In this document: positions 949 to 53,450 of the stretch, piece after piece
Layout: each line of letters starts with the position of its first letter
How positions within the stretch are numbered: the first letter of the stretch is position 1
NCBI RefSeq assembly: GCF_036971445.1
Contig: NC_091471.1
Coordinates: 327,422,001 to 327,486,000 of the forward strand
Direction of reading: 5' to 3'
DNA length: 64,000 nt
From: Narcine bancroftii
Taxonomy: Eukaryota
Translations under genes and position numbers: made by a program
Notes under the pieces: model-generated
The model's input: only the letters and a program-made list of their open reading frames with translations
Database searches by the model: none
Told to the model about the DNA's origin: nothing

Positions 949-1148
949 NNNNNNNNNNNNNNNNNNNNNNNNNNNNNNNNNNNNNNNNNNNNNNNNNNNN
1001 NNNNNNNNNNNNNNNNNNNNNNNNNNNNNNNNNNNNNNNNNNNNNNNNNNNNNNNNNNNNNNNNNNNNNNNNNNNNNNNNNNNNNNNNNNNNNNNNNNNN
1101 NNNNNNNNNNNNNNNNNNNNNNNNNNNNNNNNNNNNNNNNNNNNNNNN
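949..1148. other. Assembly gap (200 N)
   Basis: Run of N. Confidence 1.
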
Positions 1149-4754: not shown

Positions 4755-4889
4755 CGTCTCTGCCGATGGAAAAGTTGAATGGAAGCTGTTTTCTCCCGAA
4801 GAGGGGTATTTTTGGGGGGGGGGGGGGTGGTAGATCATGTGCATTCACCCCGCGGGTTCGGCAGCAGGTCTGAGAGACGGCTTTACCTG

Positions 4890-28024: not shown

Positions 28025-28064
28025 ATGATTGGGGCGGGGAGCAACCAGACCCAGCAGTGCCAAG
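28025..28064 (+). CDS. SIT1-like exon 1
   Basis: GGCATG start, NQT sequon, donor AAG|gtgagc with the required phase 1. Confidence 0.6.
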
Positions 28065-31000
28065 GTGAGCGGCAGCGGCCGACCGTCGTACGCATCGGGC
28101 ATGTGTGCAGAAGGGAACCTGCCCGACTTGTCAACCAGCGTCTGTGGAAGTGGGGGGAGGGAGAAAGAGAGTAAGCATCTTAAAACCTAAGTGCGTTGGA
28201 TGGAGCAAAGGTTTGGGGGGTGGGGGGAAGGAGTTACCATGTTGCTGAGCTCTTCTCCACCCCACTCTCTTCTTGCCTTTACAGCACCAGCGATTGGGAC
28301 TGGGGTTCAAATCCCTGCACTGTCTGTAAGGCGTTTGTATGTTCTCCCCGTGTCTGAATTGGGGGGGGGGGGGGTCCAGTTTTGTCTCACCATTCAAAAA
28401 TGAAGGGCCGAATTTGTCATCGTGCTTTATATCTAAATTTTTTTTTTTAATTCCCACAATGTTCAAGACGCTGTAGAGCAGGGGTTTTCAAACTTTTTCT
28501 TACCACTCATGTCCCTTACTAATTTCTGATGGCAGAGGGATTACTTAAGGTGGTTTGGGAGCAGAAAGAAAAAAATTTGTCATACAACATTACAGCAAGG
28601 AAACAGGCCCTACTGCCCTTCGAGCCTCTGACCTGCACCCATTCCATACTCACGTACCTGTCTAAACCTTTCTTAGAATTGAGCGCATTCACCAGATCGG
28701 CTTGTCCTGCGGGAAGAAGTTCTCCTGAATGTGTAAAATTGTGAAAGGTGTAGCGGTAGGTACATTGTTTCCATTGGTGTGAGGGATGGTGGAGACCAGA
28801 ATGAGGGGACATCGCCTCAAGATACAGGAGAGAAGATTTAGGACGGAGAGGCTTCCCACCCACCACCCCCAAGGGTGGGGAATCTGTGGAAGTTGCTGCC
28901 CAGTGGAGGTGATCTCAGTAAATATATTTAAGACGAGACTGGATGGATTTTTGCATTGTAGTGGGAAAAGGCAGGTCGGTGGAGAGGAGCTGATCATCAG
29001 ATCAGTCATGATCTCATTGGATGGTGGATCAGGTTCGAAGGGATGAATGTCCGACTCTGCTCCTGTTTCTCAATCCCCCTGAACTTTTACCCTCAATGCA
29101 CATCCTCTGGTTTGTGTATCAGTGGGAAAAATATCTATGTCCCCCTCATGATTTTAAACACCTCAATCAAATCTCCCTTCATTCTTCTATGCCCCGAGGA
29201 ATAAAGCCGGCTTTGGTTCACTCTACCCCTCATAATGTTGTCCACCTTGATCAACTCTCCCCTCGCTCTTCTCCACTCCAGGGAATGAAGGTTTCCAGAC
29301 GGCATCATTTTCAAGCCAGACCTGGGACAAAGGGTGGGGTTTTTTTCTGGACAGAGCGATTCATGTTTTGGGTCAGGACTCTGAAGCAAGTAAGGCGCGG
29401 AGCCTCAGGGAGACTGGGCGCAGACTGGGAGACTGCTTTGCCAAGCCCCTCGGCTCCGTCGGCCCCAATAGCAGGGTCTCCCAGTGGCCACACGTTTGAA
29501 TTCCCTGCTCCATCCCTCTTGCCGATGTGTCTGTCCACAATCTCACACATGGTCAGACTAAGACCACCCACAAATTGGAGGAACAGCAACTCATCTTCTG
29601 TCTGGGCCCCTTCCAACCAGATGGCATTAATATACTTCTCTGGTTTCCGTTAAACTCTATCCACCCCCCACCACCACATCTTTCCCCCAGCTCTCTCTCC
29701 TTTCCCAGTCTCCTTTCGCACAGACATGATCATGACCTATTTTATCCAATTAACAATTTTTGTTGGTCTGGACTCCTCCCCTGCCCTTTCTCCCCCTACC
29801 CCCTCCTCCAGTCCCCTACACCTCTCCCTGTCTCTGTGACCCCCTCGGCTCAGATCCAAAACATGGGTAATATATCTTCAACTCCTATGGACGCTGCAAG
29901 CCACAGAACATTCCAGCACAGTGGAGACCCTTCAGCCCCCGATGTTGTGCCAACCCATACATACCTACCCCCCAAAAAACTAAACCCTCCCTATTTTCCC
30001 TTCTATGAGTCCCATAAAGGCCCCTAATGTTCCAGCCTCCACCCCCAGCCAGGCCCTCACAACTCTCTGTGTAAAAACTCACCCCTAAATCTCCCTCCTT
30101 TCACTTTGCCCAGACTTCCTCTGGTGTTTGCTGATCCTGCCCTGGCCTTCTACCCTATGCCAGAATCTTGTAGACCTCTATCATCCTTCTCTGCTCCAAA
30201 GAGAAAAGTCCCAGCTCTGCCAACCTGACCTCATGAGACATGTTCTCCAGTCCAGGGATCGTCCTGGTCAATCTCCTCTCGACATCCTGTAATGAGGCGA
30301 TCAGACCTGAACACAACACTTCGCAGAGTGGAGGTGGGGGCCTAAACTTTCAGCAGAGGCCTAAAATGGAACGGGAGTTGAGAATGGCCTGCACAAGACT
30401 GCTCGGTGGTGGGGGGGAACAACGCCTTCTCACCACCCCGGCTCCCCAGCGAGAACCTTACTCCCTCTGCCTGCCCGACTAGTGAAGTTTCAGTGCAAAC
30501 TGAGCCAGAGCAGTGTCGGGTGGACAAGGGTGTTGCTGGGGCTTGAGTTACGGGGTTAAACAGAGTGACAGTCTGCAGGCGCGGAGATGGTCATAAAATC
30601 TCAATAAGTGCTGAGGGAACTTGCAGCGCCCATGAGAGGCGAAGGTATATGACTGACGGGTTCAGTGCCGGGGCAAACCTTCAAGGTACCAGCAAAGAAC
30701 AGGAAGGGGTCAGAATAAAGATGGAAGAGGAGACGAGAGAATTAACTTGGCTCTGTGAAAGGAGATGGGGGGGTGGGGGGAGAGAGACAGAAGGGGCGGG
30801 GGGGAAACGGGGAAGTCGATGTTAACACCGTCCGTGACGCAAGGCGAGGTGCTGTCCCTCTGAATGGTCTCTTGGTCCGGCTGTGCACCAGACCGCAGGC
30901 AGACGCGTCGGCCAGGGAATGGGGCGGCGAATTGAAACGGATGGCCGCTGGGGAGATCTGCACAGTTGCAGTGGGCGGAGCCGAGGGGCCTCTCCGACGC

Positions 31001-34000
31001 GGAGGAGAGCGCGGAGGGAGCACTGGTTGCGTTGGACCTGACTCTCCCCCCCCCCCCACCACTTCAGATTCACTTGGAAGGGCTGAATGGTGGTGATCAG
31101 GGTTAAACGGGAGGGCTTTATTTCCTGGAGCACAGAAGAGTGATTTGATCGAGGTATTTAAAATTATGAGCAAGCTTTTCCCACTGAGGTTGGGTGAGAT
31201 ACAATCCAGAGGGCATAAAACTGTAAGACACAGGAGCAGAAAGAGGCCATTCAGCCCATTAAGTCTGCCCTGCCATTCCATCATGGGCTGATCTGTTTTC
31301 CCACGGCCCATAATCTTGGACGCCCTGGCTCATCAAGAACCTCTCCCTTAAATGCCCCCAGTGACCTGGCCTCCAAAGCCGGCCGGGGCCACAAACCCCA
31401 CGGATTCGCCGCCCTCCGGCTGAAGAAATTCTTCGCGTCTCCGCTCCCAGCGGACCTGGCGTCAGCAGCCACCTCGAGGGGCTGATCAGCAACCTTGTCC
31501 CAGCAGTGGAAGGGCAAAGCACTGGAGAGCTCAGCCCGTTCCGACCGGCAGCGGAAACGAAGATCCAGGGGCGAGAGCCGTTGATTAAGTGGCCAGAATC
31601 CTGGAAGGAGGCGATGGCTGGGGAAAAAGGTCAATGCAGACCTGTGAGAGACACCATGACGAAGTTGGACGCACTGGGAAGATCTCTCCAGAGCTGCTGA
31701 AAAGGGGTGGCTCTGGATAAGGAGAAAGAATTCCACCTGCTCCCCTCCCCCTAACCTACCCCCAAGTGAGGGGTAAGCCCGGAGACGCCGGGATTCACTG
31801 CTGAGTCCAGGAGTGCATCGTTAACATCTCATCCAACGTGAAGTTGTCCCGGACTCTCCCACCATGGTGGGGGGGGGCGGGAAGGGAGTTCACGGAGAGA
31901 CTGGCGGGAGCTGGGGTGGCGAAAGCGGGCTCGATTTTGAACATTGAAGAATAATTTGCACAGGCACGTGGCTGGAATTTGGGGCTGAGGCAGGGTGAGG
32001 GTCTAGCACAGGCTAGAAGGGCCAAAGGGCCGGTTTCCTGTTCTGCAGTGTTTTACATCGAGCATTTCCTGCTTCTGCAGGCCTGTTACTTCATATTTCC
32101 GCAGCCTTGCACTGTCGAAACGTGTGGAATGGGCCAGATGAGGGCGAGAGTAGGCGGACACAGAGGTCTCTGCAGGCATAGACATGTCCCCATTTTGGAC
32201 AGGTCCTTCCTGCATCGATTCCTTTTCTGTCCTGCACGGAAACACCTTACGCCTGCTGCAGAGCAGAGCAACAATCAAAAGAGAGTCGCTTCAGAGACAC
32301 AAAGTGTCTGTGGGTTCACCTTCAGCACTCCCTCAGCCTCCTGTCCATCTGAGCTCCAGATCCGAACTGCCGATGCGACCGGAAAGCCTCCAGCCTCTTC
32401 AGAGGCCCCCTTCTTGTCATCCTTGTGCTCGTTCTCAGGCTCCTGGAGCTTTTCCCCGATAGGAGCAGATTGAAGGTGGTGGGGGTCTTTGCTGTTTTAA
32501 GATGCCACCTCTTGTCGATGTCCTTGATGGGTTGAAGTCCGCTGCCGTGATGTCGCAGGCCTGGTCTGGAGTTTATTCTTGTCCTGGGAGTTAGTGCCTC
32601 CATTGCAGAAAGTGATGCCATCAACCAGAACGCTCTTCACGGGCCACCTGTAGATATTTATGAGAGTATTCGGCGACGAACAGAACCTCCTCAGACACCT
32701 CACAAAGGCTATCCGTTGGTGATCATCAACGTGGACAGGTCCTCGGTAGATGTTGATCCGTCCCCCCAGGAATTTGAAGTCCTTGACCCTCTCCGCTGCT
32801 GAGCCCTCGATGAGGACTGGGTTGTGTTCCCGACTCCCCCTTCCTGAAGTCCACAGCCATCTCCTTGGTGTTGCTGACTTTCCATGGGCCAATCGATCTC
32901 CCCTCTGCATGTTCCCTTGTTGACATCTGGGATTCAGCCAACGACCATGGGGTCACCGGTGAAATTTGTAGACGGCTCTGGAATTGTGCCTGGCCGCACA
33001 CAGTCACAGGTGTAGAGTGAGTAGAGCAGTGGGCTGAGCCCGCATCCTTGGGGCGCGCCTGCGTTGGTGGAGGGGTAGCAGCTGCTCCTGACCTGGTTGC
33101 GCGAGTCTGGTGGCCTCTCTCCTGACGGCAGCAGCGAGAACAGATCGTGTCCTGGGTCGGGCGGATCCTTGATGATCGCTGCTTCTTTCCGACGGTACAT
33201 GGACTCCCCCACCCCGGAGGTGGGGGGGAGGGCATTTAAAGACTGTGAACATTTTCCTTCTGCCCATCAATGATTTTATCAAACTCCACAAGGTACCCAC
33301 TTCACCCACTGACGTTCTGGGGAGAAAGGCCTTGTGAGGGTTTCAGTCCCGGGAAATCTTTTCTGCTGCTGGACAACCAGAGGGTCAAGAACTGCATGCG
33401 GACTTGGATGGAGAGCAACAACAACCTCGCACTCAATGTCACCAAGACCAGGGAGGGAAAGTCAGGGGTGCATGACCCAGTGATCATTGATAGAGATAGA
33501 GAGGGCGAGCACATTTAAGTTCTTGGGAGCCACCATCTCAGAGAGTCTTTCCTGGACCCCACACGCCACTGGCATCGTGAAGAGAGCCCGTCAGCGCCTT
33601 TACTTCCTCGGGAGTTGGCAGAGGTTCAGTACGACCCTGGCGAATTTCTATGGATGTGTGGTGGAAAGTGTGCTGACCAGGTAGTATGGGGACACCAATA
33701 CCCCCTGAGCATAAAGCTCTGCAAAAGGTAGTGGACATGGCCCAGGACATCATGGGCAAAACCCTTCCGCCACCATCGAGGACATCTTGGGGACGCTGCC
33801 ATTGGGGAGCACAGTTATCATCAAGGATCCACACTGCCCAGCACACGCCCCGTTCTCCCTGTTGCTATCAGGAGAGAGGTCTGGGGTGGGGGGGGGGGGG
33901 GGGGGAATCACAAAACACGTGCCACCAAGTTCAGAAATAGCTGCTACCCCACCACTATTAGACTCCTCAAAGACAAACTCCATCAGGGATTCTGACCTGT

Positions 34001-37000
34001 GCACTTTAGTGATTTTGTGTTCTCTCTGTCTCGCACAGTCATTTTGTTTACATTTGTTATCTGATCACAATCCTTTATTTGTTTACAAGTCTTCACAATG
34101 AGCAGTAATTCTGGCGCACCTCCTACAGGGAAACGAGTCTATGTGATGTGTGTATATTCTCTGACAATAAATCTGAGACCTGAGATGAGCAGCGGGATGA
34201 ACACCGGTCCCTCGAGAGATGCCTGCGTTATCCATCAGTGTGGGCAAGATCTCGGACTTGACCTCATTTCTCTGTTCCAGGACTTCAGGATCTGTGCTGC
34301 AGCTCCCTCATGTGGATTATCTGCGGGGTGTCCGGGGCTCTTCTGCTTGTCTCGCTCTCCTGCAATGTCCTCTGCTGCGCCCAGAGCTACCGGAGAGGTA
34401 AGTGGACTTGGAGGCGGGTGGTCCACTTGGTCCCTTCGTAATTCCCTGGGATCTCAGGGCACGAGCTGGCCCATTGGGTCTGCCCTGCCATTCTCATCAT
34501 GAGCTGATCTGCCACCCTTCTCCTGCAACCCTCATCAAACACTTGTCAATCTCTGACTTAAATGCACCCAACTAGCTCATATCCATGGCCGCAAGTTCCA
34601 CAGACTCACGACCCTCTGGCTAAAGAAATATTTCCGCGTCTCTGTTTCAAATGGACGCCCTGTTACCCTGAAGTTGTGCCCCCTTGTCCTAGACTCCCCC
34701 ACTGTGGGAAACATCCTTGCCACATCCACTCTCTCCAGGCCTTTCAGCACTCGAAAAGCCTCTATGAGGTTTCCCCCTCAATCCTTCTGTACAGACCAAG
34801 AACCAGCCATCATTCCCCATATTCGAACCCTGGTATCGTTCCTCTCCAACCCCAGCATGTCTTTTCTCAAATACGTTGCCCAGAACTGTGTGCATGTCAG
34901 GCCTCACCAGTATCCTATAAAGTCTCCACACCACAGCCCTGCTCTAGTATGCCGTACCTCTTGAAATGAATGCTGACCCAACCTTCGAGGGATCCTGCAC
35001 GAGGATCCCCAGGCCCCCATGGCACCTTGGAAGTTTGGATTTCCCCCCCCCCCCCTACCCCTTTAAATAATAGTCTGCCCGTCCATCTCTTCTGCCCCGA
35101 CTGCACACTGTGCAGGCCTTTCGGCCCTTCTGGTCTGCGCTGGCCATCATCTCCCTGCTCCAACTCCACAACCTTCCAGGCCTCTCCCCTCCCTCGCGTC
35201 TGTCCAATTTAAAACTCGTGGTCGAGCCTGAGCTCACCACATTCCCGCCGCTCTCTGAGCAAAGAGCGTCCCCCTAGACCTTTCCCCATCAGCTCAAAAC
35301 AACGTCCCCTGTATTGATCTCCCCCGATTTATGTGGAGCCTCCTTGCATCCACTCTATCTACACCTCTCATAATCTCGTAAACCTCAATCAAATCTCCCT
35401 CATTCTTCTACGCTCCAGGGAATAAAGTCCGAACCTGTTCAACCTTTCCCTGTAACTCAGTTCCTGAAGTCCGGGAAACATCTGGGTTTCTATCTTACTG
35501 GTATCTTTCCTGGAGTTCGGTACCAAAACTGCACACAATTCTCTCAATCATGCCTTGTACAACTTCAATATAACACCCCAGCATTGTAATTCATTTGCCA
35601 CCTGCTTTGTCCATCCTCCTGATCTACCCAAGTCTCTCTGCAGTCTCTCTGTTCCTCTCCTCACCCCCCCCCCATCTCTCGTTGCATCACATCTGCCCAT
35701 TTTCTCAATTTTTCTGTCCCCGTCAAGGGAAACGAACCCTCCACAGAGATTTTCTGTAGACATACCATCCTCCAACAACACCTTCTCAGTTTAATTTTTT
35801 ATTTTTCACACCATAAATCACATTAACCATGGTACACACTTTTTCCTTTTCACACATATACAGTGCCATTTTTCACCCCCCCTCCCTCCTCCCAACCCAC
35901 CCTCCCCACCCCCCCCTCCCGTCCATTTAAGGTATACAATCTAGGATACATTTAACCAGTCAGACAATGTTGTCACTCAACAAAAATACACCAGAAATTC
36001 TACTGAGTCCATTCTTTTCATTTCCTTCTCCTTCCATAAACTTAGGTAATGATTGTCCCCGGTAGGTTTTTGCTATTGTATTTAATGTAAGGCTCCCATA
36101 TTTGTTCGAATATTTCAATATTATTTCTTAAACTATATGTTATTTTTTCTAATGCAATACATTTATTCATTTCTATATACCATTGTTGTATTTTCAAATT
36201 ATCTTCCGATTTCCAGGTTGACATAATACATTTTTTTGCTACGACGAGAGCTATCTTAACAATTCTTTTTTGTGCACCATCCAAATCAATTCCAAATTCT
36301 TTGTCTTTTATGTTACTTAGGAGGAAGATCTCTGGATTTTTTGGTATATTGTTTTCTGTAATTTTATTTAATATCTGGTTTAGATCTTCCCAAAATTTTT
36401 CTACTTTCTCACATGTCCAGATTGCATGAATTGTTGTTCCCATTTCTTTTTTTACATCGAAAACATCTATCAGATACTGTTGGGTCCCATTTATTTAACT
36501 TTTGAGGTGTAATGTATAGCCTGTGTATCCAGTTATATTGTATCATACGTAACCTCGTATTTATTGTATTTCTCATCATTCCAGAACATAACTTCTCCCA
36601 TGTTTCCTTTTTTGTCTTTATATTTAAATCTTGTTCCCATTTTTGTTTAGTTTTACCATTTGTTTCCTCATTCTCCTTTTCTTGCAGTTTAATATACATA
36701 TTTGTTATAAATCTTTTGATTATCATTGTATCTGTAATCACATATTCAAAGTTACTTCCCTCTGGCAAACTCATACTGCTTCCTAATTTATCCTTCAAGT
36801 AGGATCTCAATTGGTAATATGCCAGCGCTGTATCTTGAGTTATATTGTACTTATCTTTCATTTGTTCAAAGGATAAGAATCTATTTCCTGAAAAACAATT
36901 TTCTATTCTTTTAATCCCTTTTTTTCCCATTCTCTAAAGGAAAGGTTATCTATTGTAAAAGGGAGTAACTTATTTTGCGTCAATATTAGTTTTGGTAATT

Positions 37001-40000
37001 GATAATTTGTTTTATTTCTTTCTACATGAATCTTCTTCCAAATATTGAGGAGATGATGAAATACTGGAGAACTTCTATGTTTTACCAATTTTTCATCCCA
37101 TTTATATAATATGTGTTCAGGTATCTTTTCCCCTATTTTATCTAATTCTAATCTCATCCAATCTGGCTTTTCCCTTGTTTGATAAAAATCTGATAGGTAT
37201 CTTAATTGTGCAGCTCTATAATAATTTTTAAAGTTTGGCAGTTGTAAGCCTCCTTGTTTATACCATTCTGTTAATTTATCTAGTGCTATCCTCGGTTTCC
37301 CCCCTCTCCATAAAAATTTCCTTATTATTTTCTTTAACTCCTTGAAGAATTTCTCTGTCAGTTGTATTGGCAATGCCTGAAATAAGTATAATATCCTTGG
37401 AAAAATGTTCATTTTAATACAGTTTATCCTTCCTATTAGTGTTAGTGGTAAATCTTTCCAATGCTCTAAATCGTCCTGTAATTTTTTCATTAGTGGATAA
37501 TAATTGAGTTTATATAGTTGGCCGAGATTTTTGTTTATTTGTACACCTAGGTATCTTATTGCTTGCATTTGCCATCTAAATGGTGATTCCTTCTTAAATT
37601 TTGAGAAATCCGCATTATTCATAGGCATTGCTTCACTTTTATTTACGTTTATCTTGTAACCCGACACTTCTCCATATTCCTTCAATTTCTTATATAATTC
37701 TTTTATTGATAGTTCTGGTTCTGTTAAGTACACTATAACATCATCTGCAAATAAACTGATTTTATATTTCTTGTCTTTTATTTTTATTCCTTTTATATTA
37801 TTATCTATTCTTATCAGTTCTGCTAGTGGTTCTATAGCTAACGCAAACAATTAAGGTGATAGTGGACATCCCTGCCGTGCTGACCTGCTTAAGTTAAATT
37901 GCTTTGATACATGTCCATTTACTGTCACTTTCGCTAATGGTCCCTTATATAATGCTTTAATCCAATTAATATACTTCTCCGGTAAACTGAATTTTTGCAA
38001 TACTTTGAACAAATAATTCCATTCTACTCTGTCAAAGGCCTTCTCTGCGTCTAAAGCAATTGCTACTGTAGGTGCTTTATTTCCTTCTACTGCATGAATT
38101 AAGTTAATAAATTTACAAATATTGTCTGTTGTGCGTCTTTTTTTGATAAATCCAGTTTGGTCTAAATTTACCATTTTCGGTACATGCTCTGCTAATCTGT
38201 TTGCTAATAGTTTAGCTATTATCTTATAATCTGTGTTAAGCAAAGATATTGGTGTATATGACGCTGGTGAGAGTGGATCTTTCCCTTGCTTTAGTATTAC
38301 TGTAATTATTGCTGTTTTACATGAATCTGGTAAGCTTTGTGTTTCATCAATCTGGTTGATTACTTCCAGGAGGGGCGGAATTAATAAGTCTTTAAATGTT
38401 TTGTAGAATTCTATTGGGAATCCATCCTCTCCTGGTGTCTTATTATTTGGTAATTTTTTTATTATCTCTTGTATTTCTACTATTCCAAATGGCTCTGTTA
38501 ATTTATTTTGTTCCTCTATTTGTAGTTTTGGTAGTTCAATTTTAGTCAGAAATTCATCTATTTTCCCTTCTTTCCCTTCGTTTTCAGTTCGGTATAATTG
38601 TTCATAGAATTCTCTAAAGTTTTCCTTAATTTCTTTTGGATTATATGTAATTTGTTTGTCTTTTTTCCTTGATGCCAATACCATTTTCTTAGCTTGTTCT
38701 GTCTTAAGCTGCCATGCTAGGATTTTGTGCGTTTTTTCACCTAGTTCATAATATTTCTGTTTTGTCTTCATTATATTTTTCTCCACCTTATATGTTTGTA
38801 GTGTTTCATATTTTATTTTTTTATCCGCCAATTCTCTTAGTAATATCTTCCTTCATTACTAATTCTTTTTCTATATTTACTATTTCCCTTTCCAACTGCT
38901 CTGTTTCCTGATTATAGTCCTTCTTCATCTTATTATTTGCCCTCTAATGAATGCTTTCATTGCATCCCATAGTATAAACTTATCTTCCACTGATTCCGTA
39001 TTTATTTTAAAATACATTTTAATTTGTTTTTCAATAAATTCTCTAAAATCCTGCCTTTTAAGCAACATGGGGTTTAATCTCCATCTATACATTCTTGGAG
39101 GGATGTCCTCTAACTTTACTGTCAATATTAAGGGTGAATGGTCCGATAGTATTCTAGCTTTATATTCTGTTTTTTTTACTCTATCTTGCATACGAGCTGA
39201 TAACAAAAATATGTCTATTCTTGAGTATGTTTTATGTCTAGCCGAGTAATATTAATATTCCTTTTCCTTTGGGTGTTGTTTCCTCCATATATCCAAAAGT
39301 TGCATTTCTTCCATCGATTTAATTATAAATTTGGTTACTTTGTTCTTTCTGTTAATTTTTTTCCCAGTTTTGTCCATATTTGAATCCAAATTCAGGTTGA
39401 AATCCCCTCCTATTAATATGTTCCCTTGCGTATCTGCTATCTTCAAAAAGATATCTTGCATGAACTTTTGATCTTCTTCGTTAGGTGAATATACATTGAG
39501 TAGATTCCAAAACTCTGAATATATCTGACATTTTATCATTACATATCTCCCTGCTGGATCTATTATTTCCTCTTCTAGTTTAAATGGCACATTTTTACTA
39601 ATTAATATAGCTACTCCTCTTGCTTTTGAATTATACGATACTGCTGTTACATGTCCTACCCAATCTCTCTTTAATTTCTTATGTTCCAATTCAGTTAAAT
39701 GTGTTTCTTGCACAAATGCTATATCAATTTTTTCTTTTTCAGTAAATTTAGCAGTTTCTTCCTTTTAATTTGGTTATGTATTCCATTAATATTTAAAGTC
39801 ATATAGTTCAACGTAGCCATTTTATACTTTGTTTATCTTCCCTTTCCGTTTCTGCATCATTACTTTTCCTTCTTATCCATTTCTGTTTTCTTGTTTTGAA
39901 TCCTTTATAAGACAACATTCCTAAAACATCAAACATTTTCCTTATTCTCCTATTTAAAACTTCTTTAGCCCCAATCCCCCCTTCCCCTCCTGAGTTGTCC

Positions 40001-43000
40001 TTTATCCCTTGTCGGACAACCACATCTCCCCTCTCCATTTGGATTTGCGAATTCACTCGCAAGCGTCAGCTGATTTTGCAGTGACCGTAATACCCCCCCA
40101 CCCAGCCCCCCCCAGAAAAGATTTCGCTTTTCGTATGTGACAAAGGTCACTCTTTTAATTCCCTCCTTATTCCCTCTATTCCTTTTCCTTCCCTTATTAA
40201 TTCTTGTCTATACTATCTATATTTCCCTCTAAATACGGATACATTCATGTATGCACATTATACATATACACACATATACCTCTTTACCCACATACATATA
40301 AATCGTGGTCATTTTTACTCTTATTACATATCTTCATCTCTCTGTTTGTTTTGTAGTTATTCTGCAAATTTCCTTGCTTCCTCTGGATCCGAGAATAGTT
40401 TTTTTTCCATAAGATCGTTTTCGATGTTTTGAACTCTTTCCTCCTCTTCAGGAGCTCAAAACTTATGTCTTTTCAGTTTGCAGTCTTTTGTACTCTCGTT
40501 ACACGTCTTCATCTCTCAGTCTATTTTGTAATTGTTCTGCAAATTTTCGTGCTTCCTCTGGATCCGAGAATAGTCTGTTTTGTTGTCCTGGAATAAATAT
40601 TTTCAATACCGCTGGATACTTTAGTATAAATTTATACCCTTTCTTCCATAAAATCGCCTTTGCTGTATTGAACTCCTTTCTCTTCTTCAGGAGTTCAAAA
40701 CTTATATCTGGATAAATGAAGATTTTTTTGCCCTTTGTACTCCAGTGGCTTATTGTCCTCTCTTACTTTTTCCATTGTTTTCTCCAGTACCTTTTCTCTT
40801 GTAGTATATCTTAGGAATTTTACTAAAACAGATCTTGGCTTTTGTTGTGGTTGTGGTTTAAAGGCCAATGCTCTATGTGCCCTTTCTATTTCCATTTCTT
40901 GCTGTAGTTCTGGACATCCTAGGATCCTAGGGATCCAATCTTTTATAAACTCTCTCATATTCTTGCCTTCTTCATCTTCCTTAAGGCCCACTATCTTTAT
41001 GTTATTTCTTCTGTTATAATTTTCCATTATATCTATTTTCTGAGCTAACAGTTCTTGTGTCTCTTTAACTTTTTTTATTAGATTCCTCTAATTTATTTTT
41101 TAAGTCCTCTACCTCCATTTCTACTGCTGCTTCTCGTTCTTGCACCTTGTCCATTCTTTTTCCCATTTCTGATAAGGTCATATCTATTTTATTCATTTTC
41201 TCTTCTGTATTGTTTATTCTTCTTCTTAAATCATCAAATTCCTGCGCTTGCCATTCTTTAAATGACTCCATGTATTCTTTAATAAGAGAAAGTAAATCCT
41301 TCTTCTTCTATTTCACTGTACTCTTCCTCTTCCTCTTCCTCTGGGTTGGCCATCTGTTGTTTCTTTGTTGCCCTTTTCTTCTCTTCTTTCTTGTTTTCAT
41401 TGTCTTCTGTATTCTCTTCTTGCTGCAGGTGTTCTGCAGCTGTCATTGCCGGCTGTGGAGATCGACTCCCCAGCTGGTCCCCCCTCCCTTCGGTGTGTTT
41501 TTTTTCATGCGTATCGCGCATGCGCACTTTTACTCGGCTCAGCGAGCCATTTTTGTAGTCCATATTCTACCGACCTGAGGGAGCGGGTTTCTCTCTCCAC
41601 CGCGGGCCTCTTCGAACAGGTAAGGCCTTTTCCTTCATCTTCCGTTGTCTTCTCTTCCTCTCTTCTTACCGTTGGTTTCGACTTTTCTTTTTTCGTCGCC
41701 ATCTTCTTTCCACCTTTATATTCACTTTACTTTGATTTTTATTTCTGTGCCTTTGTGTTTTGCTTTGTTTTTTCTGACTTTTCTGGAGAGGGCTGGAGTT
41801 CACCGTCCGGCCACTACTCCATCACGTGACTCCTCAACAACACCTTCTCAGTTAACGACATGTCAAACCTGCCTGGCCTGCAGGAACCATAGAACAATTA
41901 CAGCACAGAAACAGGCCCTTCAGCCCCTCTAGCCAAACCATTTTTTTGCCTCATCCCACTGACCAGCACCCAGTCCGTACCCCTCCCATCCATGGACCTG
42001 TCCAAATTCTTCTTAAATGTTAATATTGAGCCCGCATTCACCACCTCAGCTTGTTCTACACTCCTATGTGAAGAAGTTCCTCCTAAACTTTTCCTCTTTC
42101 ACCCTTAACGTCTGGTTTGTATCTCACCGACCCTCGGTGGGAAAAGTTGATCTACATTTACTCTGTCTGTCCCCCTTATAATTTTAAACACCTCGATCAA
42201 ATCTCCCCTCATTCTTCTACACTTTAGGGAATAAACTCTGAACCTGTTTAACCTGTAACTCAGTTCCTGAGAAAGGATCTCAGGGCCGTATGTGATGTCA
42301 TGTATGTACTCCGACAATGAGGGACAGCATGGTTAGCATAACGCCTTTACAGTGGATTTGATTTCCGCGCCATCCGTAAGGAGATTGCACGTTCTCCCCA
42401 AGTCTGGGTGGGTTTTCCCTGGGAGGGGGTCTCCGGCTTCCTCCCACCCTTCAAAATGTAGTGGGGGTTGTAGGTCAAATTGGGTGTAATTGGGCGGCAT
42501 GGGCCCATGGCCATCAATTCAGGGCAGTAGGACCCCACAGAGCAGCACCGTATCTCCACTCTCCCCAGGTCCACACCAGTGGTCGCGATGTCAGGTTTTT
42601 TTTTAACTCGATGGGCTGCATGGCCTACTGTTCCTGATACACTGGTTCACATGAAATAACGCTGAGCTTTTTTCCAGGTAACACCAGCAAGTTCCTTCCT
42701 CGCTTCCAGAGAAGGTAAAAGGCGACCTTTCTCAAAAAGCAGAAGTATTTGTACAGTGATTAAACCTCACACAGCATGCCTCTTGGCCCTTGGCTGAGAC
42801 CTTAAATACAGAATTGTTCACACACGTCTCAGTCTGGGAAAAGCAGACAGGGAGGGGTGTAGGGGACCGGAGAGGGTTACACAGATGAGGAGGGGTGTAG
42901 GGGACCAGAGGGGGTTATAGAGAGAGGGACGGGTATAGGGGACCAAAGAGGGTGAGAGACATGGAGGGGACCAGAAGGGGGTTACAGAGTCAGGGAGGGG

Positions 43001-45296
43001 TGTTAGGAACCGGGAGTGTTTACAGTGGGTGGGGTGACATGGTTAGCACAATACAGCCCCAGCAACCAGGGTTCAAATTCGCCACTGTCTAAGGAATTTG
43101 TACGCTCTCCCCGTAACCTGCCCGGGTTTTCCATGGGGACTCTAGTTTCCTTCCACCCTCCAAAATGTTGGGGGTTGTAGGTTAATTTGCGTCTGATTAG
43201 GCGGCATGGACGTAAATAGCCAAATTAGGTTCTGTTGTGGTGTAAATAAAAACTCAGTTCAGGTTACCTCATGACAGGAAGGATGTGGCACCTCTGGAGA
43301 GGGGGCAGAGAAGATTCACCAGGATGTTGCCTGGGTTGGGAAACAAGTCTCATGAGGCAAGGTTAGCAGAGCTAGGACTTTTCTCTCTGGAGTGGAGAAG
43401 AATGAGAGGAGACTTGATAGAGGTCAACAAGATTCTGAGAGGCAGAGACAGGGTGGATGGCCAGCGCCTGTTTCCCAGACACCAGAGGACGTCTGTATAA
43501 GGTGAAGGGAGGGAAGTTCAGGGGTAATTTTTTTTTATATACAGAGAGTTGGGGGGGTCTGGAAGGCCTCGCCAGGGGAGGTGGTGGAGGCTGGAACATT
43601 TAAGAGACTCTTAGATGGCCCATGGTTGGAAGAAAAATTGAGGAGTATGGGGTAGGGAGGGATTAGTACTTTAAAAAAAATATTGTCGGCACATCGAGGA
43701 CCGAAAGGCTTGTACTGTGCTTGCGTGTTCAATGTACTCCTCATTGGGGCAAGAGATCCCAGAGGATCAGAGCTAGCACCACCAGGCTGAGGAACAGCTT
43801 CTTCTCACATGCTTAATGACCAAAGGAACTGCTCCCACTGACCTTCCGAGACTCTCATAGTCACAAAACAATTATTTGTGTTGATGAAATACTTGTCCTG
43901 CATATGTATAATTGATCCATGACGTCTGTGTGTGTTGCACCGATTTACAACCCATTCACCTATACCCCCCCCCCCCCCCACCCGGATGGCTTTGAACGGT
44001 GGGAGGAAACCAGAGCCCACAGTGGGAGGGGAAACCCACGGAAGTACAAACACCTCAGACAGCACAGGGATTCGAACCCCTGGTTGTTGGCATTGTGGAC
44101 AGCTCGACGAGGTTGTGTCTGTCACCTTCACCCTTCTCTTCCTCAGCTTGACGAGGTTGTGTCCATCACCTTCATCCTTCTCTTCCCCAGTTTCAGCTTC
44201 AAGTCAGAAGAGGTCGAGGATAATCCTGTGTACGGGAACATCAACTACCTTTACACAGGTGAGGGGTGCTGCATATCACCGTTACTGAACGTGGGCGTGC
44301 GCGCACTCACTGACCTGGCTTTCTCTGGGGGGGAGAAATATACCGAGTTGAGCAGCGTTGGATCAGGCTGGCCCGTGCTGACCCTGGCTTGTCCTGAACC
44401 TCTCTGACATGTGCGCTCATCGAACTTGAGCGTGTGCAGACATACACACACAGACAGATAAACTCAGACATACAGACAGGTACACACAAACACAGGTATT
44501 GAGACAGACAGATACACTCAAACACACACACAGAGATATACTGAGACACAGACAGGTACATTCAAACACACACACACACACACAAATATACTGAGACAGA
44601 CAGATACACTCAAACACACACGCACAGATACACAGACACACCCCCCCCCCCCCCCCCCCAAGAAGGTCAGGATGGAACCTGAGCTCAACTCACTGCCAGT
44701 GTTTTAATGAATTTTTTCCCCAAACATTTCTATGAAAGAGCGATTCTAGAAATATGCCCATTGGTCTTCATAAGGGAGCACTGATCACCGCTCACCGTTC
44801 TCTCCGCAGGGATGGAGAGAGGGAACATTGCACAGACAATAGAAAATGATAAACTAAAGGTAGGTTTAACAACAGTGTGATGGGATGGTGCGGAGGGAGC
44901 TTCACTGTGTCCGACCCTCTCCCCGGGGAGGGTGTGATGGGACGGTGCGGAGGGAGCTCCACTGTTTATTTCCCTCCTATCTGTGCTCAGCGACAGATCT
45001 GCTACGCCAAATTACAACTGGCCCCATTGGGTACACAGCAGGGCAGGAACAAATCCAAGACCCAGTACACGGACATCATGAATGTGCTCTCAAGTTCTCA
45101 CGTGGAGAATCAGGCAGCGAACGGGAATCCTGGTCCGTGGAAGGACAGTACCCAGAGCACAAGCCTGTCCCCCGCCAACCTTCACCTCCTAGACTTGGAG
45201 CCCTCAGACCTCTATGCCTCGGTGCGACTGGTCGAGCGTGGAGAGAAGGACTGGAGGGGTCAGTATGCTAACAAAGAGAGCCTCAAAATTCAGTGA
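28025..45296 (+). CDS. SIT1/TRAT1-family transmembrane adaptor (SIT1-like), ~205 aa; join(28025-28064,34281-34397,42678-42714,44191-44258,44810-44859,44991-45296)
   Basis: Short ectodomain [22 protein letters not shown], one TM segment [22 protein letters not shown], and a tail with [29 protein letters not shown] and QYAN. These match human SIT1 motifs recalled from memory (PLYGNLHYL, MCYTSLQL, VKYSEV, ELYASV, AYAN) in the same order. All junctions are GT-AG and phase-consistent. Confidence 0.85.
34281..34397 (+). CDS. SIT1-like exon 2 (transmembrane)
   Basis: Acceptor ttccag|, donor G|gtaagt, hydrophobic helix. Confidence 0.85.
36042..39820 (-). pseudogene. L1 ORF2, disrupted
   Basis: EN, RT ([22 protein letters not shown]) and CCHC fragments spread over several frames. 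Confidence 0.92.
40499..41702 (-). pseudogene. L1 ORF1, disrupted
   Basis: MATKKEKSK... through [14 protein letters not shown]; frameshifts. Confidence 0.88.
42678..42714 (+). CDS. SIT1-like exon 3
   Basis: [11 protein letters not shown]; phases 1 and 2 bridge exons 2 and 4. Confidence 0.75.
43260..43730 (+). mobile_element. CR1 LINE 3' fragment (others at about 16410-16840 -, 28760-29060 +, 34490-34980 -, 47080-48050 +, 59620-60490 +, 60900-61270 +, 62550-63070 +)
   Basis: [15 protein letters not shown]...[18 protein letters not shown], the CR1 C-terminal signature. Confidence 0.85.
44191..44258 (+). CDS. SIT1-like exon 4
   Basis: [22 protein letters not shown]; donor gtgagg. Confidence 0.88.
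44435..44660. repeat. Compound (CA)/(CAGA) microsatellite followed by poly-C
   Basis: Direct inspection. Confidence 0.85.
44810..44859 (+). CDS. SIT1-like exon 5
   Basis: [16 protein letters not shown]; acceptor ccgcag|, donor AAG|gtaggt. Confidence 0.8.
44991..45296 (+). CDS. SIT1-like exon 6 (tyrosine motifs and stop)
   Basis: [10 protein letters not shown]...TQYTDI...DLYASV...[11 protein letters not shown]. Confidence 0.88.
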   Translation, partial: RQICYAKLQLAPLGTQQGRNKSKTQYTDIMNVLSSSHVENQAANGNPGPWKDSTQSTSLSPANLHLLDLEPSDLYASVRLVERGEKDWRGQYANKESLKIQ

Positions 45297-45399
45297 GACA
45301 GGAACGGCAGAAGTCAGCAGGTCCCTCAGGTACGTGACCATCACAAGGACCCCCCAAGTCAAACCCTACTAGCAAAATTGTCCACCCTTTCCATTCTGG

Positions 45400-46135
45400 G
45401 GAGGCGGTGTTACAGGGGGTCCTAGGGAGGTTGTTGGTGTTTACAGGGGATCCTGGGGAGGGTGTCATTGTTACAGGGGGTCCCAGGGAGGGTGTCGGTA
45501 TTTACAGGGGGTCCTGGGGAGTTTCTGTGTTTATAGGGAGTTCCAGAGAGTGTCAATGTTTACAGGGGGTCCCGGGGAAAGTTTTGGTGATGACAGGTTC
45601 CAGGGAGTGTGTCAGTATTTACAGGGGGTTCCGGGGAGGGTGTCAGTATTTACAGGGGATCCCAGGGATAGTGTCTGCAGGGGGTCCCAGGGAGAGTGTT
45701 GGTGTTTGCAGGGGGTCCCTGGGAGTGTCAGTGTTTGCAGGGGGTCCCAGGGAATGTGTCTGTGTTTGTAGGGTGTCCCGGGGAATGTGTATGTGTTTGC
45801 AGGGGGTCCCGGGGAATGTGTATGTGTTTGTAGAGGGTCCCGGGGAATGTGTATGTGTTTGCAGGGGGTCCCGGGGAATGTGTATGTGTTTGCAGGGGGT
45901 CCCGGAGAATGTGTATGTGTTTGCAGGGGGTCCCGGGGAATGTGAATGTGTTTGCAGGGGGTCCCGGGGAATGTGAATGTGTTTGCAGGGGGTCCCGGGG
46001 AATGTGAATGTGTTTGCAGGGGGTCCCGGGGAATGTGAATGTGTTTGCAGGGGGTCCCAGGGAATGTGTATGTGTTTGCAGGGGGGTCCCGGGGAATCTG
46101 TTGGTGTTTACATGGGGTCCTGGGGAGGGTGTTGG
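45400..46135. repeat. ~31-bp minisatellite (GGGAATGTGTATGTGTTTGCAGGGGGTCCCG)
   Basis: Homogeneous over 45750-46095 and degenerate at the flanks. Confidence 0.9.
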
Positions 46136-46767
46136 TGCTCCCATAGTCACTGACCTTTCTCTCTCCCCCCCCCCCCACCCCAGATATTGGCTGAACTTCC
46201 AGACCTTTCTGTTCAATTTTAATTTCTTACGTTGAATGGAGCTCCAAACTTCTGCAGCTGGGATGTGCGCCCAAGATGGTGACGTCTGTTCTGGGCAGTG
46301 GCCCATGAAGGGTCGCAGACTCCAGAGGTGTTCAGTACAGGGCTTCAGAATCGTCACGCCACCCCTTCCCCAAGAAGAAGCAGAGGAAGCGACCCCACGG
46401 GGACGGTACCCACGGTGGTGGAGCAGTGTCTGAACGACCCGCTCGGGGTGCAGTTCATGGGAACTGGGCATTGGAGCTGGGATTTGACAGGGCGGGAACG
46501 GGGCCTTGGGTGCTGACCGCATCAGATGTTCGGATTTGGAATTTGGGCAGCCAACTGACCCGACTGGACTCTGCATCTGTGGGAGTGCTGGAGGCGAATC
46601 CAAGGTGGACATTCAGTGACTCTGGGGGGACTCTTTTTTGCTTCTCTTTCTCTCGATCTGTAAGCAGGCGATGGGGAATCCTCACGGCGACCCCTTGTCT
46701 GCCTTACGGCAGGGAAGTGTTGAAGTACTTCAACTGCATTACATTTTTAAACGTCCATTTATGTGAC

Positions 46768-46773
46768 AATAAA
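46768..46773 (+). terminator. Probable polyadenylation signal of the SIT1-like gene
   Basis: AATAAA in the putative terminal UTR exon starting at 46184; a second AATAAA at ~46915. Confidence 0.5.
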
Positions 46774-48415
46774 ATGAACCTTTCAATTGACAGGGGATCT
46801 GTTCTAGAAGACGCGGCCTTTAACCGCGAGGAAGAGTTCACCCCTTCCCACCAGATCTCTGGGAGGTGGGGGTCCCACACCGGACGAACGACCTTCCACG
46901 TGAGCCAGAGGGACAATAAAAAACTGGTCGTTCAGGATTTCCCCTCCCACCCCTTTAACCCTTACCTCCTCCTCGACGCCGGGCTCACGGGTTTTGGCAT
47001 GTGTGGTGTTAACTTGGGACCCTGGCGCCCTTTTTCCTGGGAAGCACGGGAGAACGGTCAGCCGACAAATTCACAGTGCTAGACGATAGCACCTCACTAC
47101 AGGACAGACATCAATAAGATAGAAAGAGGGCAGCGAATATGTTGCCCGGACTTCAGGAGTTGAGTTACAGGGATTCCCTGGAGCATAGAAGAATGAGGGG
47201 AGACTTGATCGAGGTATTTAAAATTACGAGGGAATAGACAGAGTAAATATAAGACAGCTTTTCCCACTGAGGGTCAGTGAGGACCAAAACAGAGGACACG
47301 GATTAAGGATGAAAGTGAAGGTTTCGGGGGAACTTCTTCACACAGAGACTACTGATGGTGAGAATTTGATGCACTTTGGAAGGACAAACTAAGAAAGGAT
47401 GTACACAGTGAACGGTCGGGCACTGAGGAGAACAGAGGGATCTGGGAATACAGAGAAATAATTCCCTGAAAGTGGCATTACAGGGGGACAGGGTCGTAAT
47501 AAGAGCTTTTGGCATCTTGGCCTTCATAAATCAGTACTGAGTCCAGGAGTTGGGATGTGATGGTAAAGTTGTACAAGACAATGGTGAGGCTAAATTTGGA
47601 GAATTGTGTGCAGTTTTGGTCATCGAACTACAGGAAAGATATCAATAAGATAGAAAGAGGGCAGAGAAGATGTACTAGGATGTTGCTGGACTTCAGGAAC
47701 TGAGTTACAAGGACAGGTTAAACAGGTTCGGATTTTATTCCCTGGAGCATAGAGGAATAAAGGGAGATTTGATTGAGGTGTTTAAAATTACGAGGGGGAC
47801 GGACAGAGTAAATGTCAGTCAGCCTTTTCCCTCTGAGGGTTGGTGAAAGGTTAAGGGTTATATGTTAAGGGTGAAGGTTTAGGGGAACTTTTTCATGCAG
47901 AAAATGGTGAATGCGGGCTCGATTTTTCCGTTCCAGACAAACTTGGACGGGTATGAGGATGGGAAGGGTATAGACTGGGTGCAGGTCAGTGGGACGAGGG
48001 GAGGTCGGTCATGGACGAGACAGGCCCGTTCCTCTGCTGTTGTGTTTGGTGGTTCTAAACCATCTTGAGGCTTGCCTGCCCCTCAGAAGGGGAAGATTTA
48101 CCAGATAGCAGCACTCGGTGTGACTCCCACCACCCCCATCCCCCAGACACATGACCTCTCCCACCTGGAGGACACCCCTTCCCTGCTCTGTGAACACATT
48201 CTGTGAACACATTATTGCAGGGAGCAACATATCCTCCCCCTCCGGTTCCCCAGAAGCTCGTCCCCGCAACATGCCGCAGGCACCCAAGATGGGATGGACA
48301 GGTGGGCGGACAAGAGAGGACCAATTTTGGCCAACGTGCCTCGCGCGAGCCACCCCCCACCTCCCTTGGACGGCGTGACACAAGGACCTCTCCGTTCCAC
48401 AGGCACAGACAGATT

Positions 48416-48421: not shown

Positions 48422-48626
48422 GAAGTCCCGGCAAAAGGCGGCTTCACCACTGGCATTCTCTGCGGCACATTGTTCCCGGCTGTCAGCTCCATTCCGCAGG
48501 CCTACTGTGAGGGGTCGGTTGCCGAGCGTTGAGGGGTGGGGAGGTTCCTCGGTTGACCTGCGGCCAGACACGCTCTGCCCTGTCGGACCAGCCGAGCGAG
48601 GGCGGCACTCAGCAGGTGAGCTGCGC

Positions 48627-48740
48627 CTACTTCCTCCTCCGCCTCACCACGGTCCAATCTCCGGCGGTCTCCTCCTCACCCTGGCTCCTGCCAGCGGCGA
48701 CTGGACATGATGTGGCGGGTGGATCATCGCACTCCATGAC
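48627..48740 (-). CDS. TSR2: TSR2 exon 5
   Basis: VMECDD...[10 protein letters not shown]. Confidence 0.9.
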   Translation of the reverse strand, partial: VMECDDPPATSCPVAAGRSQGEEETAGDWTVVRRRRK

Positions 48741-51700
48741 CTGCGAACGTACATAGAGGGATGGGGAGGGAGGTGTCAACACAAGGTCACTGCCCCACAG
48801 CCGCCTGACCCTCCCCTTGCCCCATTCAACCGACCGTGGGAAAGGGGACGCCCGCCCCCGCGGGATGCTGAGAGAGGGGACTCTCACCCCATGGGATGCT
48901 GGGACTCACCTCCTCCTCCTCAACTGGGCTCTCCTCGCCATCCTCGCCCGGCCCCCTCGCCCCCATCGCCTGTGCCTGGGCGATGGCCTTCCCCTGGGCC
49001 ATCTGCTGGAGCCGAGCCCTGACCCTGGACTCCTCACCGCGCTGGCACATAGCAAAGGTGGTCCACAGATGGTGGGCGACCTGCGGTGGGAGCAGCCAAT
49101 TAGAGAGGCCTTAGAGTCATCCCTACCCTGAAGGCCGAACCTCAACCCCCTCCCAACCCCTCACTGTCCCCCTCACTCGCTCCCCTCAACCCCTATCCTC
49201 CTAACCCCTCATTAACTGACCACCTCTCCCCTGGCCTCTGACCCCTCACCTTCCCACTCCCACCCCCCTCACATTCCATACTCCCCCTCTACACTCAACT
49301 ATCATCCCCTGAGTCCCTCACACTTTCTTTCTGAGCGGATGGAGGGGGTGGAGCGACAGAGATGGGGGGGGAAACAGACATGGGGAGGGTGGCGACGGAG
49401 AAAGGTGACAGATGGGGAGGGGGTGGGGCAACAGATGGGGTGGGGCGAGGTGAGCAACAGGGCACAGGTGGTGACAGGTTCTCACAGAGCTCGGGACCCA
49501 GGCCACCCCAACAGAGAGAGCATTCCGGGACCTGGATTCTGGGAGGGGACTGGTTTGGATACCAGGACAGAGCCTATGTCCATTCCACCCCCCCCCCCCC
49601 CCCCCAGGACTGACCTCGGACACACTGCCATCTTCAATCACCGTGTTGAACTCATTGTCCAGCATGTCGGCCAGCAGTTCCTCCACCTCGTCCCTCTCCA
49701 GACTGGCTGCGGGAGATCCGGGAAGAATTTTAAATCACAAGTCAAGAATTTTATTTGTAACAGGTGAAAAATTGCTATACACATTAATTGGTGCAAGAAG
49801 AGAAGGTGAAGCGAGCCGTTGTCCGTTCTGGAATCTGGTGGTGGAGGGGAAGAAGCTGCCCTTGTGCTCGTCCTTGGACACCTGGATCTTTTCCCTGATG
49901 GGAGCAGGGGGGTGGGTGTCCTTGAGTTTATTCTTGTCCTGAGAATTGACGCCTCCGTTCTAACCAGCCAGAATGCTCCCCTGTAGATGTTTACAAGTCT
50001 TTGGTGACGAACTGAATCTCCTCAAAGTTTAGCCATTGGCGAGCTTTCTTTGTGATGGCATCGACGTGGAGGCTCCAGAACAGGTCCTTGGAGATGTTGA
50101 CACCCACTAGGAATTTGAAGTCCTTGACCCTCTCCACGACTGAGCCCTGGATAAGAACTGGGTCGTGTTCCCCTGAACCCCAACCCCCGGTCCACAGTCG
50201 CCTCTTTGGTCTTGCTGACGTTGAGCGCAAGGCCGATCTGTCTCCCTCCTGCAAGCCTCCTCATGGCTGTCTAGCAGAAGCCATCCAAATGGTGCCCGGC
50301 TCACCTGGGCCCAGATCGAGCGGAGCAGTCTTTGAGATGTGCAGAGTCGTTGGTGGCATCCTTCACCAGGTACAGCCTCTGGCGAGCCCTCTTCATGACC
50401 GCGTCGACACGGAGGCTCCAGGATGGAGGTGTTGACCCTGCCCCCCCCCCCAGGATTTCAAAGACCTTGACCCTCTCTGCCACCAACCCCTCGATAAGGA
50501 CTGGGTCATGTTCCCTTAATCCCCACAGGCCAAGAGCCACTGGTTTAGAGTAAAGTGACACCCCATTAAGATCTCACACGTTATCCCTTGGGTATATTGA
50601 AGAAGTGACTAAATTATACCACCATCCAAATGTTAGTTTCTTATAAATGAGTCACAGGCCACTGTGATATTTCTTGGGCGCCCTTAAGAGTTGTAAATTC
50701 TTGATTATAATCAATTGTTGCAGAACGCCGGTGCCAGAATTTGGGAAACAGGAGCCAGCCCGACCACTGACTGAGATGGGCCAAGAAATGGATAGGGCGA
50801 CCCCTGGAATTTCCCACTAAAGTGCTGGTTTTGGAGAAGACTCCCCCCCCACCCCCACCTCCCAAAAATCTGGCCGCTCATTGGAGCATTTCAACAACAG
50901 ATCATTCTTGCTCTGATTTCATTGGGATGTTTTAAAATAAACCGCTGTCGGCTCCTGCAACAGGCCGCTTTAAAGTCTGTTTGGAGCCGAGGGCAGTCGT
51001 ACCGGGCAGGTGTGGGGCTGATGACTAACGCGCGAGGTGTCGATTCTTTGCCAACTGTTTGTTCAGGATTTTAAGTTTCAAGATTCAGCAGTGAGCAGGA
51101 CCACCACTGTTCACCATCGACCACTCTGCAGCAGAGAGAGTGGGCGACCCCCCAGTAACCTATCGCTCAACATATTCTCACTGATCAGGAAGCTGCACCT
51201 TCTGAGAAGGCTGAGGTGGGCAAGGCTACCGGCTGCCATCAAGTCCTTGGACACCTTCTACAGCAGCTCTATCCAGAGAGTCCTGGCCGGCTGCATCACA
51301 GTGGGGGTCCGGTCGCTGCAGGGAAATGGATTGGAGGTCCATCCACAGAGTGGCAGAGAGGATCACTGGAGTCTCCCCCTCCCCATTGACATGATCTACT
51401 GGGATCATTGTCTGAAGAGGGCAGGCAAAATCACAGAAGACCCCTCCCACCCCACCACACAGCGACTTTCACCTGCTCCCGTCGGGGAAGAGATCCAGGA
51501 GGATCAGAGCCAGCATTACCAGGCTGAGGGACAGCTTCTTCCCATGGGCTGAACGACCAAAGGAATTGCTCACACTGACGCTCCGAGACTCTCATAGTCT
51601 CAAAACAATATTTATTTGTACAGATTAAATACTTGTCCTGCGTATGTATCGTGTGTTATGCCTGCATGTTTTGCACCGAGGACCAGAGAACGCTGTTTCG

Positions 51701-53306: not shown

Positions 53307-53450
53307 ATTCCCCCGAGCATGCGCAGCAGCTGCCGCGCCAATCGCCGGCAACGAGCATGCGCGTCGGTGCGGAGCCGGGACTGGGAGGATGGGAGGGGAT
53401 GGTTCGTGCTGCCCTCTGACGCCCCGGAGGAAAAGCACCAGCACTGGTGG
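53307..53450 (-). promoter_or_regulatory. TSR2 proximal promoter
   Basis: Two NRF1-like GAGCATGCGC (~53315, ~53353), CCAAT ~53338, CpG-rich. Confidence 0.6.

Follow-up and report, generated by a model that had tools for sequence, protein, structure and literature searches.

A SIT1-Type Adaptor Gene in Narcine bancroftii

A 64,000-nucleotide stretch of the genome of the ray Narcine bancroftii (contig NC_091471.1, positions 327,422,001 to 327,486,000; G000:C8:327.42-327.49 Mb), referred to here as the window, carries between GPKOW and TSR2 a gene that is very probably the 1:1 ortholog of SIT1, at a position unlike that of the human gene. SIT1 (SHP2-interacting transmembrane adaptor) in mammals damps T- and B-cell receptor signals. 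The ray gene is real and spliced, and it is an ordinary SIT1 family member, with no new gene family shown. It had been predicted from the sequence as a hidden gene; it is instead one that lacks a name in the public catalogue, because the same 205 residues are already in RefSeq as an "uncharacterized protein" of N. bancroftii (XP_069785272.1), and three relatives have been auto-named SIT1-like.

The original prediction of six small exons encoding a single-pass protein of about 205 residues without a signal peptide agrees letter for letter with this RefSeq model: all six exons have GT-AG ends, and the spliced frame is open. The protein has a single hydrophobic stretch (19-residue windows with starts at residues 15-33, peak about 23-44), and an N-terminal hydrophobic leader is absent. 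In the form that begins with exon 1, the outer part has an NQT sequon at residue 7 and cysteines at residues 12, 19, and 20; three further cysteines (41, 45, and 46) lie at the inner end of the helix. The predicted sequon, ectodomain cysteines, and five ordered tyrosine motifs (Y79GNI, Y109AKL, Y130TDI, Y179ASV, and Y196AN) can all be read from the spliced frame, and the four longer motifs sit in forward-strand frames where they had been placed. This ordered set arose in none of 200,000 shuffles of the ray protein tail. Exon 6, whose coding part is 44991-45296, has a single match in the ray genome. The structure model of the ray protein in Atlas is poor (pTM 0.19, pLDDT 0.49), a SIT1 profile against the PDB gave chance transmembrane matches only, and Pfam run on single exons gave no SIT match.

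RNA evidence comes from contigs of four runs of one study (X1-X4). None of these runs is on record as RNA and their tissues are not recorded; they were treated as RNA because their contig joints are GT-AG, and such contigs drop rare forms. The junctions joining exons 2-3, 3-4, 4-5, and 5-6 are present, with GT-AG ends, in contigs of all four runs, so that four of the five coding junctions called for by the original prediction were seen. The remaining one, between exons 1 and 2, was not seen among the contigs listed for X1-X4, and exon 1 was without cover at 99% likeness in the run contigs, which by itself is no evidence of silence. An intron in the 3′ untranslated region (UTR; 45330-46183), 33 nt past the stop, was spliced in three of the four runs. 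AATAAA occurs at 46768 and 46915, and one contig reaches 47202.

Family Membership

The assignment to the SIT1/TRAT1 family, and to its SIT1 branch, was borne out by Pfam, Atlas, profiles, and trees, as far as non-mammalian SIT1 is concerned. SIT (PF15330) was the sole Pfam family match of the ray protein (E = 2.1e-5), and in the Atlas ranking two SIT1 clusters came first (0.95) and TRAT1 third (0.93). A profile of six tetrapod SIT1 proteins scored the ray protein at 101.9 bits (E = 1.1e-31 in a set of 61 sequences), and a profile of five TRAT1 proteins at 52.1 bits. The tetrapod-only SIT1 profile also found three exons in the window directly (E = 6.3e-8 for exon 2, 2.9e-5, and 0.034).

Motifs were counted in 51 of the 61 proteins: nine full-length SIT1-type proteins from cartilaginous fish, 31 from ray-finned fish, and six from tetrapods, plus five of TRAT1 type. 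Excluded from counts and trees were the ray's own exon, a chimeric Carcharodon model, four partial rows, and four near-duplicates. In the Carcharodon model, an unrelated stretch of MHC class II beta type follows SIT1-like exons 1-2, and the model is probably an annotation chimera. The first tree, from which 14 further bony-fish rows were also left out, held 37 of the 61 proteins and used TRAT1 as outgroup. TRAT1 stood apart (support 100/99), cartilaginous fish (95/94) and bony vertebrates (98/87) formed separate groups, the ray protein fell among the batoids (98/97), and the SIT1-type rows followed species-tree order. This tree carried a long-branch warning; a second tree of 19 rows without the long branch again separated SIT1 from TRAT1 (100/100) and recovered the two SIT1 groups (88/91 and 85/85). 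Sequence searches yielded these two groups only, SIT1-type and TRAT1-type. NCBI names the caecilian, axolotl, alligator, turtle, catfish, and arapaima members of the first SIT1, with no "-like," and the Callorhinchus, Geotrypetes, and Polyodon members of the second TRAT1. Human SIT1 is linked to the first group through these names and through the motifs that PMC2193021 prints for it; for instance, alligator EEVPVYGNI resembles human EEVPLY90GNL.

RefSeq proteins named SIT1-like in Pristis, Heterodontus, and Heptranchias, together with five unnamed shark and ray models, are 38-68% identical to the ray protein with the same motif order, and on this sequence comparison they are its direct orthologs. 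The three names are automatic, and no study of these proteins was found; nor did searches of the literature library find any paper on SIT1 in cartilaginous fish or on SIT1/GPKOW/TSR2 synteny.

That the gene might be the ray's TRAT1 (TRIM) has practically no probability left. The two families share Pfam membership, a YGN motif, and a CYAxL motif, the ray protein has between these a YxxM as in TRAT1, TRAT1 came third in Atlas, and a Met24 form of the ray protein (see below) would have nearly no outer part, as in TRIM. However, a better TRAT1 match lies elsewhere in the ray genome (G000:C16:4.11 Mb, E = 8.4e-15), TRAT1 proteins are 19-24% identical to the ray protein, and the ray gene has three C-terminal SIT1 motifs that TRAT1 is without, namely the ITIM/ITSM (immunoreceptor tyrosine-based inhibition or switch motif), YASV, and terminal YxN (0/5 TRAT1 proteins). 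The separate locus and both trees rule TRAT1 out. The TRAT1-like exons span G000:C16:4,109,800-4,117,200 on the reverse strand and include YGNL and CYASL motifs.

Chromosomal Position

The neighbors named in the original prediction, GPKOW and TSR2, were confirmed by G-patch_2, GPKOW_C, and PF10273 matches (Table 1), and the TSR2 locus is the only PF10273 locus found in the ray genome. Farther out, an FtsJ-type tRNA methyltransferase (FTSJ1) precedes the window by about 70-95 kb, and a WNK kinase, which from the human gene order we take to be WNK3, follows it at 50-90 kb. FTSJ1, GPKOW, TSR2, and WNK3 are all Xp11 genes in human. The neighbors of human SIT1 are RMRP, CA9, TPM2, and TLN1. In the ray, the best RMRP match is at C1:133.57 Mb. 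A block at C8:63.3-63.9 Mb contains a talin (of the two copies, the one nearer talin-1, at 112 vs. 100 bits), a tropomyosin, and a carbonic anhydrase with CA9 as its best PDB match; this CA9/talin-1 block is 264 Mb from the SIT1-type gene. The RNase MRP RNA gene itself occupies G000:C1:133,566,754-133,568,186 together with a weaker copy that lies 0.9 kb away; two further weak matches are on C24 and C1.

The positional difference from human SIT1 is real. It had raised the idea of a third family member that mammals have lost; in that case the gene would be tied to the GPKOW/TSR2 block outside mammals, and the 9p13 SIT1 of mammals would be a separate old duplicate. The neighbors of Xp11 type (if the WNK kinase is WNK3), the distance to the CA9/talin-1 block, the placement of RMRP on another contig, and the absence of mammalian SIT1 from all match lists are compatible with this scenario. 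We nevertheless consider it improbable, and the claim is weak: the searches produced two groups only, the SIT1-type tree is in species order, six non-mammalian members bear the plain name SIT1, and the alligator motif matches the human one printed in PMC2193021. Moreover, no second SIT1-like exon turned up in the stretches scanned, which cover 800 kb at the CA9 locus and 100 kb at the RMRP locus (lowest E = 5 with the tetrapod profile and 2.3 with the bony-vertebrate profile). The scanning profiles were built without cartilaginous fish, and the same profiles found three exons in the window. Where a gene lies does not define membership of the SIT protein family, and the difference is most simply accounted for by one relocation of SIT1, which probably took place in the lineage leading to mammals; a duplicate lost twice would be a less simple explanation. 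In turtle, gar, and alligator, SIT1 lies on small records (25.0, 21.5, and 76.0 Mb, respectively), a hint at such a single move.

Several points weigh against 1:1 orthology as we propose it. The Pfam SIT score of 25.4 bits is below the cut-off of 27.6. Mammal and bird SIT1 were returned by no sequence search, and both trees are without the human gene. At C8:327.45 Mb, the ray gene does not have the neighbors of human SIT1 alongside, and ARHGEF39, CCDC107, CD72, and TESK1 were not located in the ray genome. The locus scan took in 900 kb of the 3.3-Gb genome, less than 0.03%, and the searches of the whole genome for a second copy lacked sensitivity: neither PF15330 nor alligator SIT1 recovered even this gene, so that these searches say nothing about paralogs. 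Finally, contigs through exon 2 in three of the four runs (X1, X2, and X4) carry a junction at 17183, not exon 1. An Rgp1 family search gave no match. The supplement of PMC3964593 has one entry for TRAT1, none for SIT1, SH2D1A, SH2D1B, PTPN11, ZAP70, or GRB2, and no synteny; that of PMC4290089 has no SIT1 entry and no synteny.

Tyrosine Motifs and Cysteines Across Vertebrates

Human SIT has the motifs EEVPLY90GNL, MCY127TSL, VKY148SEV, Y169ASV, and Y188ANS (PMC2193021). The ray protein resembles SIT1 in its short outer part with a predicted N-glycan site and cysteines, its one transmembrane helix, and the order of its five tyrosine motifs, the second and third tyrosines being 21 residues apart as in human SIT. 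Like mouse SIT, it is leaderless. A YASV-type motif and a terminal YxN are present in 9/9 cartilaginous fish and 6/6 tetrapod SIT1 proteins. Unlike human SIT, the ray protein has three outer cysteines rather than one, a sequon that does not overlap a cysteine, and a linker of 49 residues rather than 21 between the third and fourth tyrosines; unlike human SIT1, the gene has other neighbors and six coding exons.

The third motif differs as well. An ITIM is (S/I/V/L)xYxx(I/V/L) and an ITSM is TxYxx(V/I), as defined by PMC12151841 and PMC8631942. The ray's TQYTDI had been described as fitting neither; with Thr at -2 it is indeed no canonical ITIM, but it matches the ITSM consensus exactly, in contrast to the ITIM of human and other bony vertebrates. 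Thr at -2 is found in 9/9 cartilaginous fish and the full ITSM in 6/9. Cetorhinus, Mustelus, and Hemiscyllium, which form one clade (100/99), have Thr as the last residue of the third motif, which in them is neither an ITIM nor an ITSM. Among the six tetrapod and 31 ray-finned-fish SIT1 proteins no ITSM occurs at this tyrosine, and an ITIM is present in 6/6 and 28/31, respectively (stricter pattern; 29 if a final Ile is allowed). On the alignment, we regard the ITSM as a form of the site particular to this lineage and not as its loss, because the tyrosine is aligned and ITSMs also dock SHP2; it would lower the case for identical wiring, not that for orthology. A caution in PMC12151841 is that ITIM and ITSM labels say little about function.

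The tyrosine-motif set had been called complete, and a sixth motif had been missed: Y86TGM, a YxxM, lies seven residues after the YGN tyrosine and is a consensus match only. YxxM is found in 5/9 cartilaginous fish, 0/37 bony-vertebrate SIT1 proteins, and 5/5 TRAT1 proteins; its sharing by cartilaginous fish at 56-68% identity would be weak evidence of selection. According to PMC2193021, human SIT lacks YxxM and does not bind p85, and the role of YxxM is described for TRIM.

A further difference concerns the cysteines at the helix's inner end, which human SIT is not known to have. An inner-helix Cys-Cys pair occurs in 5/9 cartilaginous fish, 26/31 ray-finned fish, and 6/6 tetrapods. According to PMC3177817, human SIT is a non-raft adaptor.

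An Alternative 5′ End

The exon 2 contigs noted above lead to an upstream exon at 17.0-17.2 kb. Loose contig ends at 34281 in X1, X2, and X4 match 17154-17183 exactly, after which the genome reads GTAAGT; one contig with this junction has a depth of 308.6. The upstream exon (17007-17183) belongs to a dispersed repeat, with 39 other matches of at least 40 scored at 75-86% identity; it lies 1.6 kb beyond the GPKOW poly(A) signal, and its 5′ partner was not seen. Joining it to exon 2 puts a TGA in the coding frame and leaves Met24 as the first in-frame start, for a protein of 182 residues.

The main ray transcript of this SIT1 ortholog could thus start at, or read through, the repeat exon and skip coding exon 1, giving the Met24 form without glycan or outer cysteines, or little protein owing to upstream frames. 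Besides the exon 2 contigs and the uncovered exon 1, the presence of Met24 in 9/9 cartilaginous fish and the four ATGs upstream of it in the alternative transcript, one opening an 86-codon overlapping frame, speak for such an arrangement. We nonetheless hold it to be unlikely as the main form. The contigs come from a single study whose runs are guessed to be RNA and drop rare forms, the X3 contig, whose first base is at 34281, fits more than one upstream partner, and the start context of Met24 is weak. Exon 1, conversely, is well supported as coding on its sequence: it is open, with a good start and donor, is the sole ATG-to-donor candidate with a near-perfect donor between 23,000 and 34,280, is part of the RefSeq model, and is conserved in sharks and rays (sequon before the helix in 7/9 cartilaginous fish, aligned cysteine in 9/9). 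Read-through in non-lymphoid tissue would explain the repeat exon, because it sits just past the GPKOW poly(A) signal. We take the transcript with the 17183 junction to reflect either a second 5′ end or read-through in whichever tissues were sampled.

Table 1. Exons of the SIT1-type gene and flanking genes, in window coordinates.
Feature	Position	Strand	Description
GPKOW, upstream neighbor	5943..15366	+	G-patch_2, E = 3.1e-13; GPKOW_C, E = 9e-7 on last exon; ends read from sequence
Repeat-derived upstream exon	17007..17183	+	5′ end uncertain; joined directly to exon 2, coding exon 1 skipped
Coding exon 1	28025..28064	+	Start codon, NQT sequon (N7), Cys12; open, G at -3, consensus donor
Coding exon 2	34281..34397	+	Cys19/Cys20, Met24, transmembrane helix, juxtamembrane Cys41/45/46
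Coding exon 3	42678..42714	+	37 nt; basic juxtamembrane linker; both junctions in 4/4 runs
Coding exon 4	44191..44258	+	Y79GNI (YxN, predicted Grb2 site); Tyr86 of YxxM finished by exon 5
Coding exon 5	44810..44859	+	50 nt; provides Met89 of Y86TGM
Exon 6	44991..45329	+	Y109AKL, ITSM-type TQY130TDI, Y179ASV, Y196AN; stop 45294-45296; 33 nt of 3′ UTR
Non-coding 3′ exon	46184..46790	+	End approximate; 45329-46184 GT..AG junction in 3/4 runs
TSR2, downstream neighbor	48618..53308	-	Tail to tail; PF10273 WGG matches 49609-49713 and 51980-52090; ends read from sequence

Other Features of the Window

Two near full-length LINE-like (long interspersed nuclear element) insertions, identified by eye, lie at 17850-23700 (+) and 35800-41830 (-); they contain AT-rich ORF1/ORF2 (open reading frame) remnants with stops and have very deep summed contig cover. 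GPKOW introns contain long G+C-rich minisatellites (7150-9200, 9380-10230, and 11280-13650) whose frames run without a stop for as many as about 1,000 codons but are not genes. On the reverse strand at 1-4940 there is a probable gene head to head with GPKOW, with candidate exons near 2293-2443 and 4888-4950; the one frame tested had no Pfam match. Upstream of TSR2, at 54990-55960, there are duplicated elements, namely a pair of G+C-rich blocks containing ACTACAA and a block of about 200 bases that is present twice; this is probably a shared TSR2/WNK promoter region. An Rfam scan of the window gave no matches.

A Candidate Mechanism

By analogy with its mammalian relatives, the ray protein is likely to be a phosphotyrosine scaffold that damps antigen-receptor signaling in lymphocytes. 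It would insert into the membrane by a signal anchor without a leader, as for mouse SIT, and, going by what PMC2193021 and PMC3177817 say of human SIT, would carry an N-glycan at N7 and form a disulfide-linked dimer via Cys12 or Cys19/20 in the lymphocyte membrane. Following antigen-receptor triggering, Src-family kinases would phosphorylate the tyrosines and Grb2 would dock at Y79 and Y196, again after those papers. SHP2 may dock at Y130, here via an ITSM, as in PD-1, and Csk may dock at Y179. Bound Grb2, SHP2, and Csk would together raise the signaling threshold. Inhibition by human SIT does not need the SHP2 site (PMC2193021), which fits the drift of this motif in sharks.

A more divergent view is that shark and ray SIT1 may be a differently wired adaptor joining SIT and TRIM functions, with an ITSM that would switch between SHP2 and SAP/EAT-2, a PI3K-docking YxxM, palmitoylated inner cysteines directing it to rafts, and an ectodomain-less Met24 form. 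Mammals would later have had a stripped, non-raft, purely inhibitory version, moved from an Xp11-type block to 9p13. We regard this as doubtful.

Implications

With this gene and the locus on C16, both SIT-family adaptors, SIT1 and TRAT1, are placed in cartilaginous fish, which implies that the machinery for tuning antigen-receptor thresholds was likely in place by the time of the first jawed vertebrates. The unnamed RefSeq model XP_069785272.1 gains a name. Furthermore, the ITSM/ITIM swap across the clade, the decay of this motif in three shark lineages, the additional YxxM, and the inner-helix cysteines offer natural variation open to testing.

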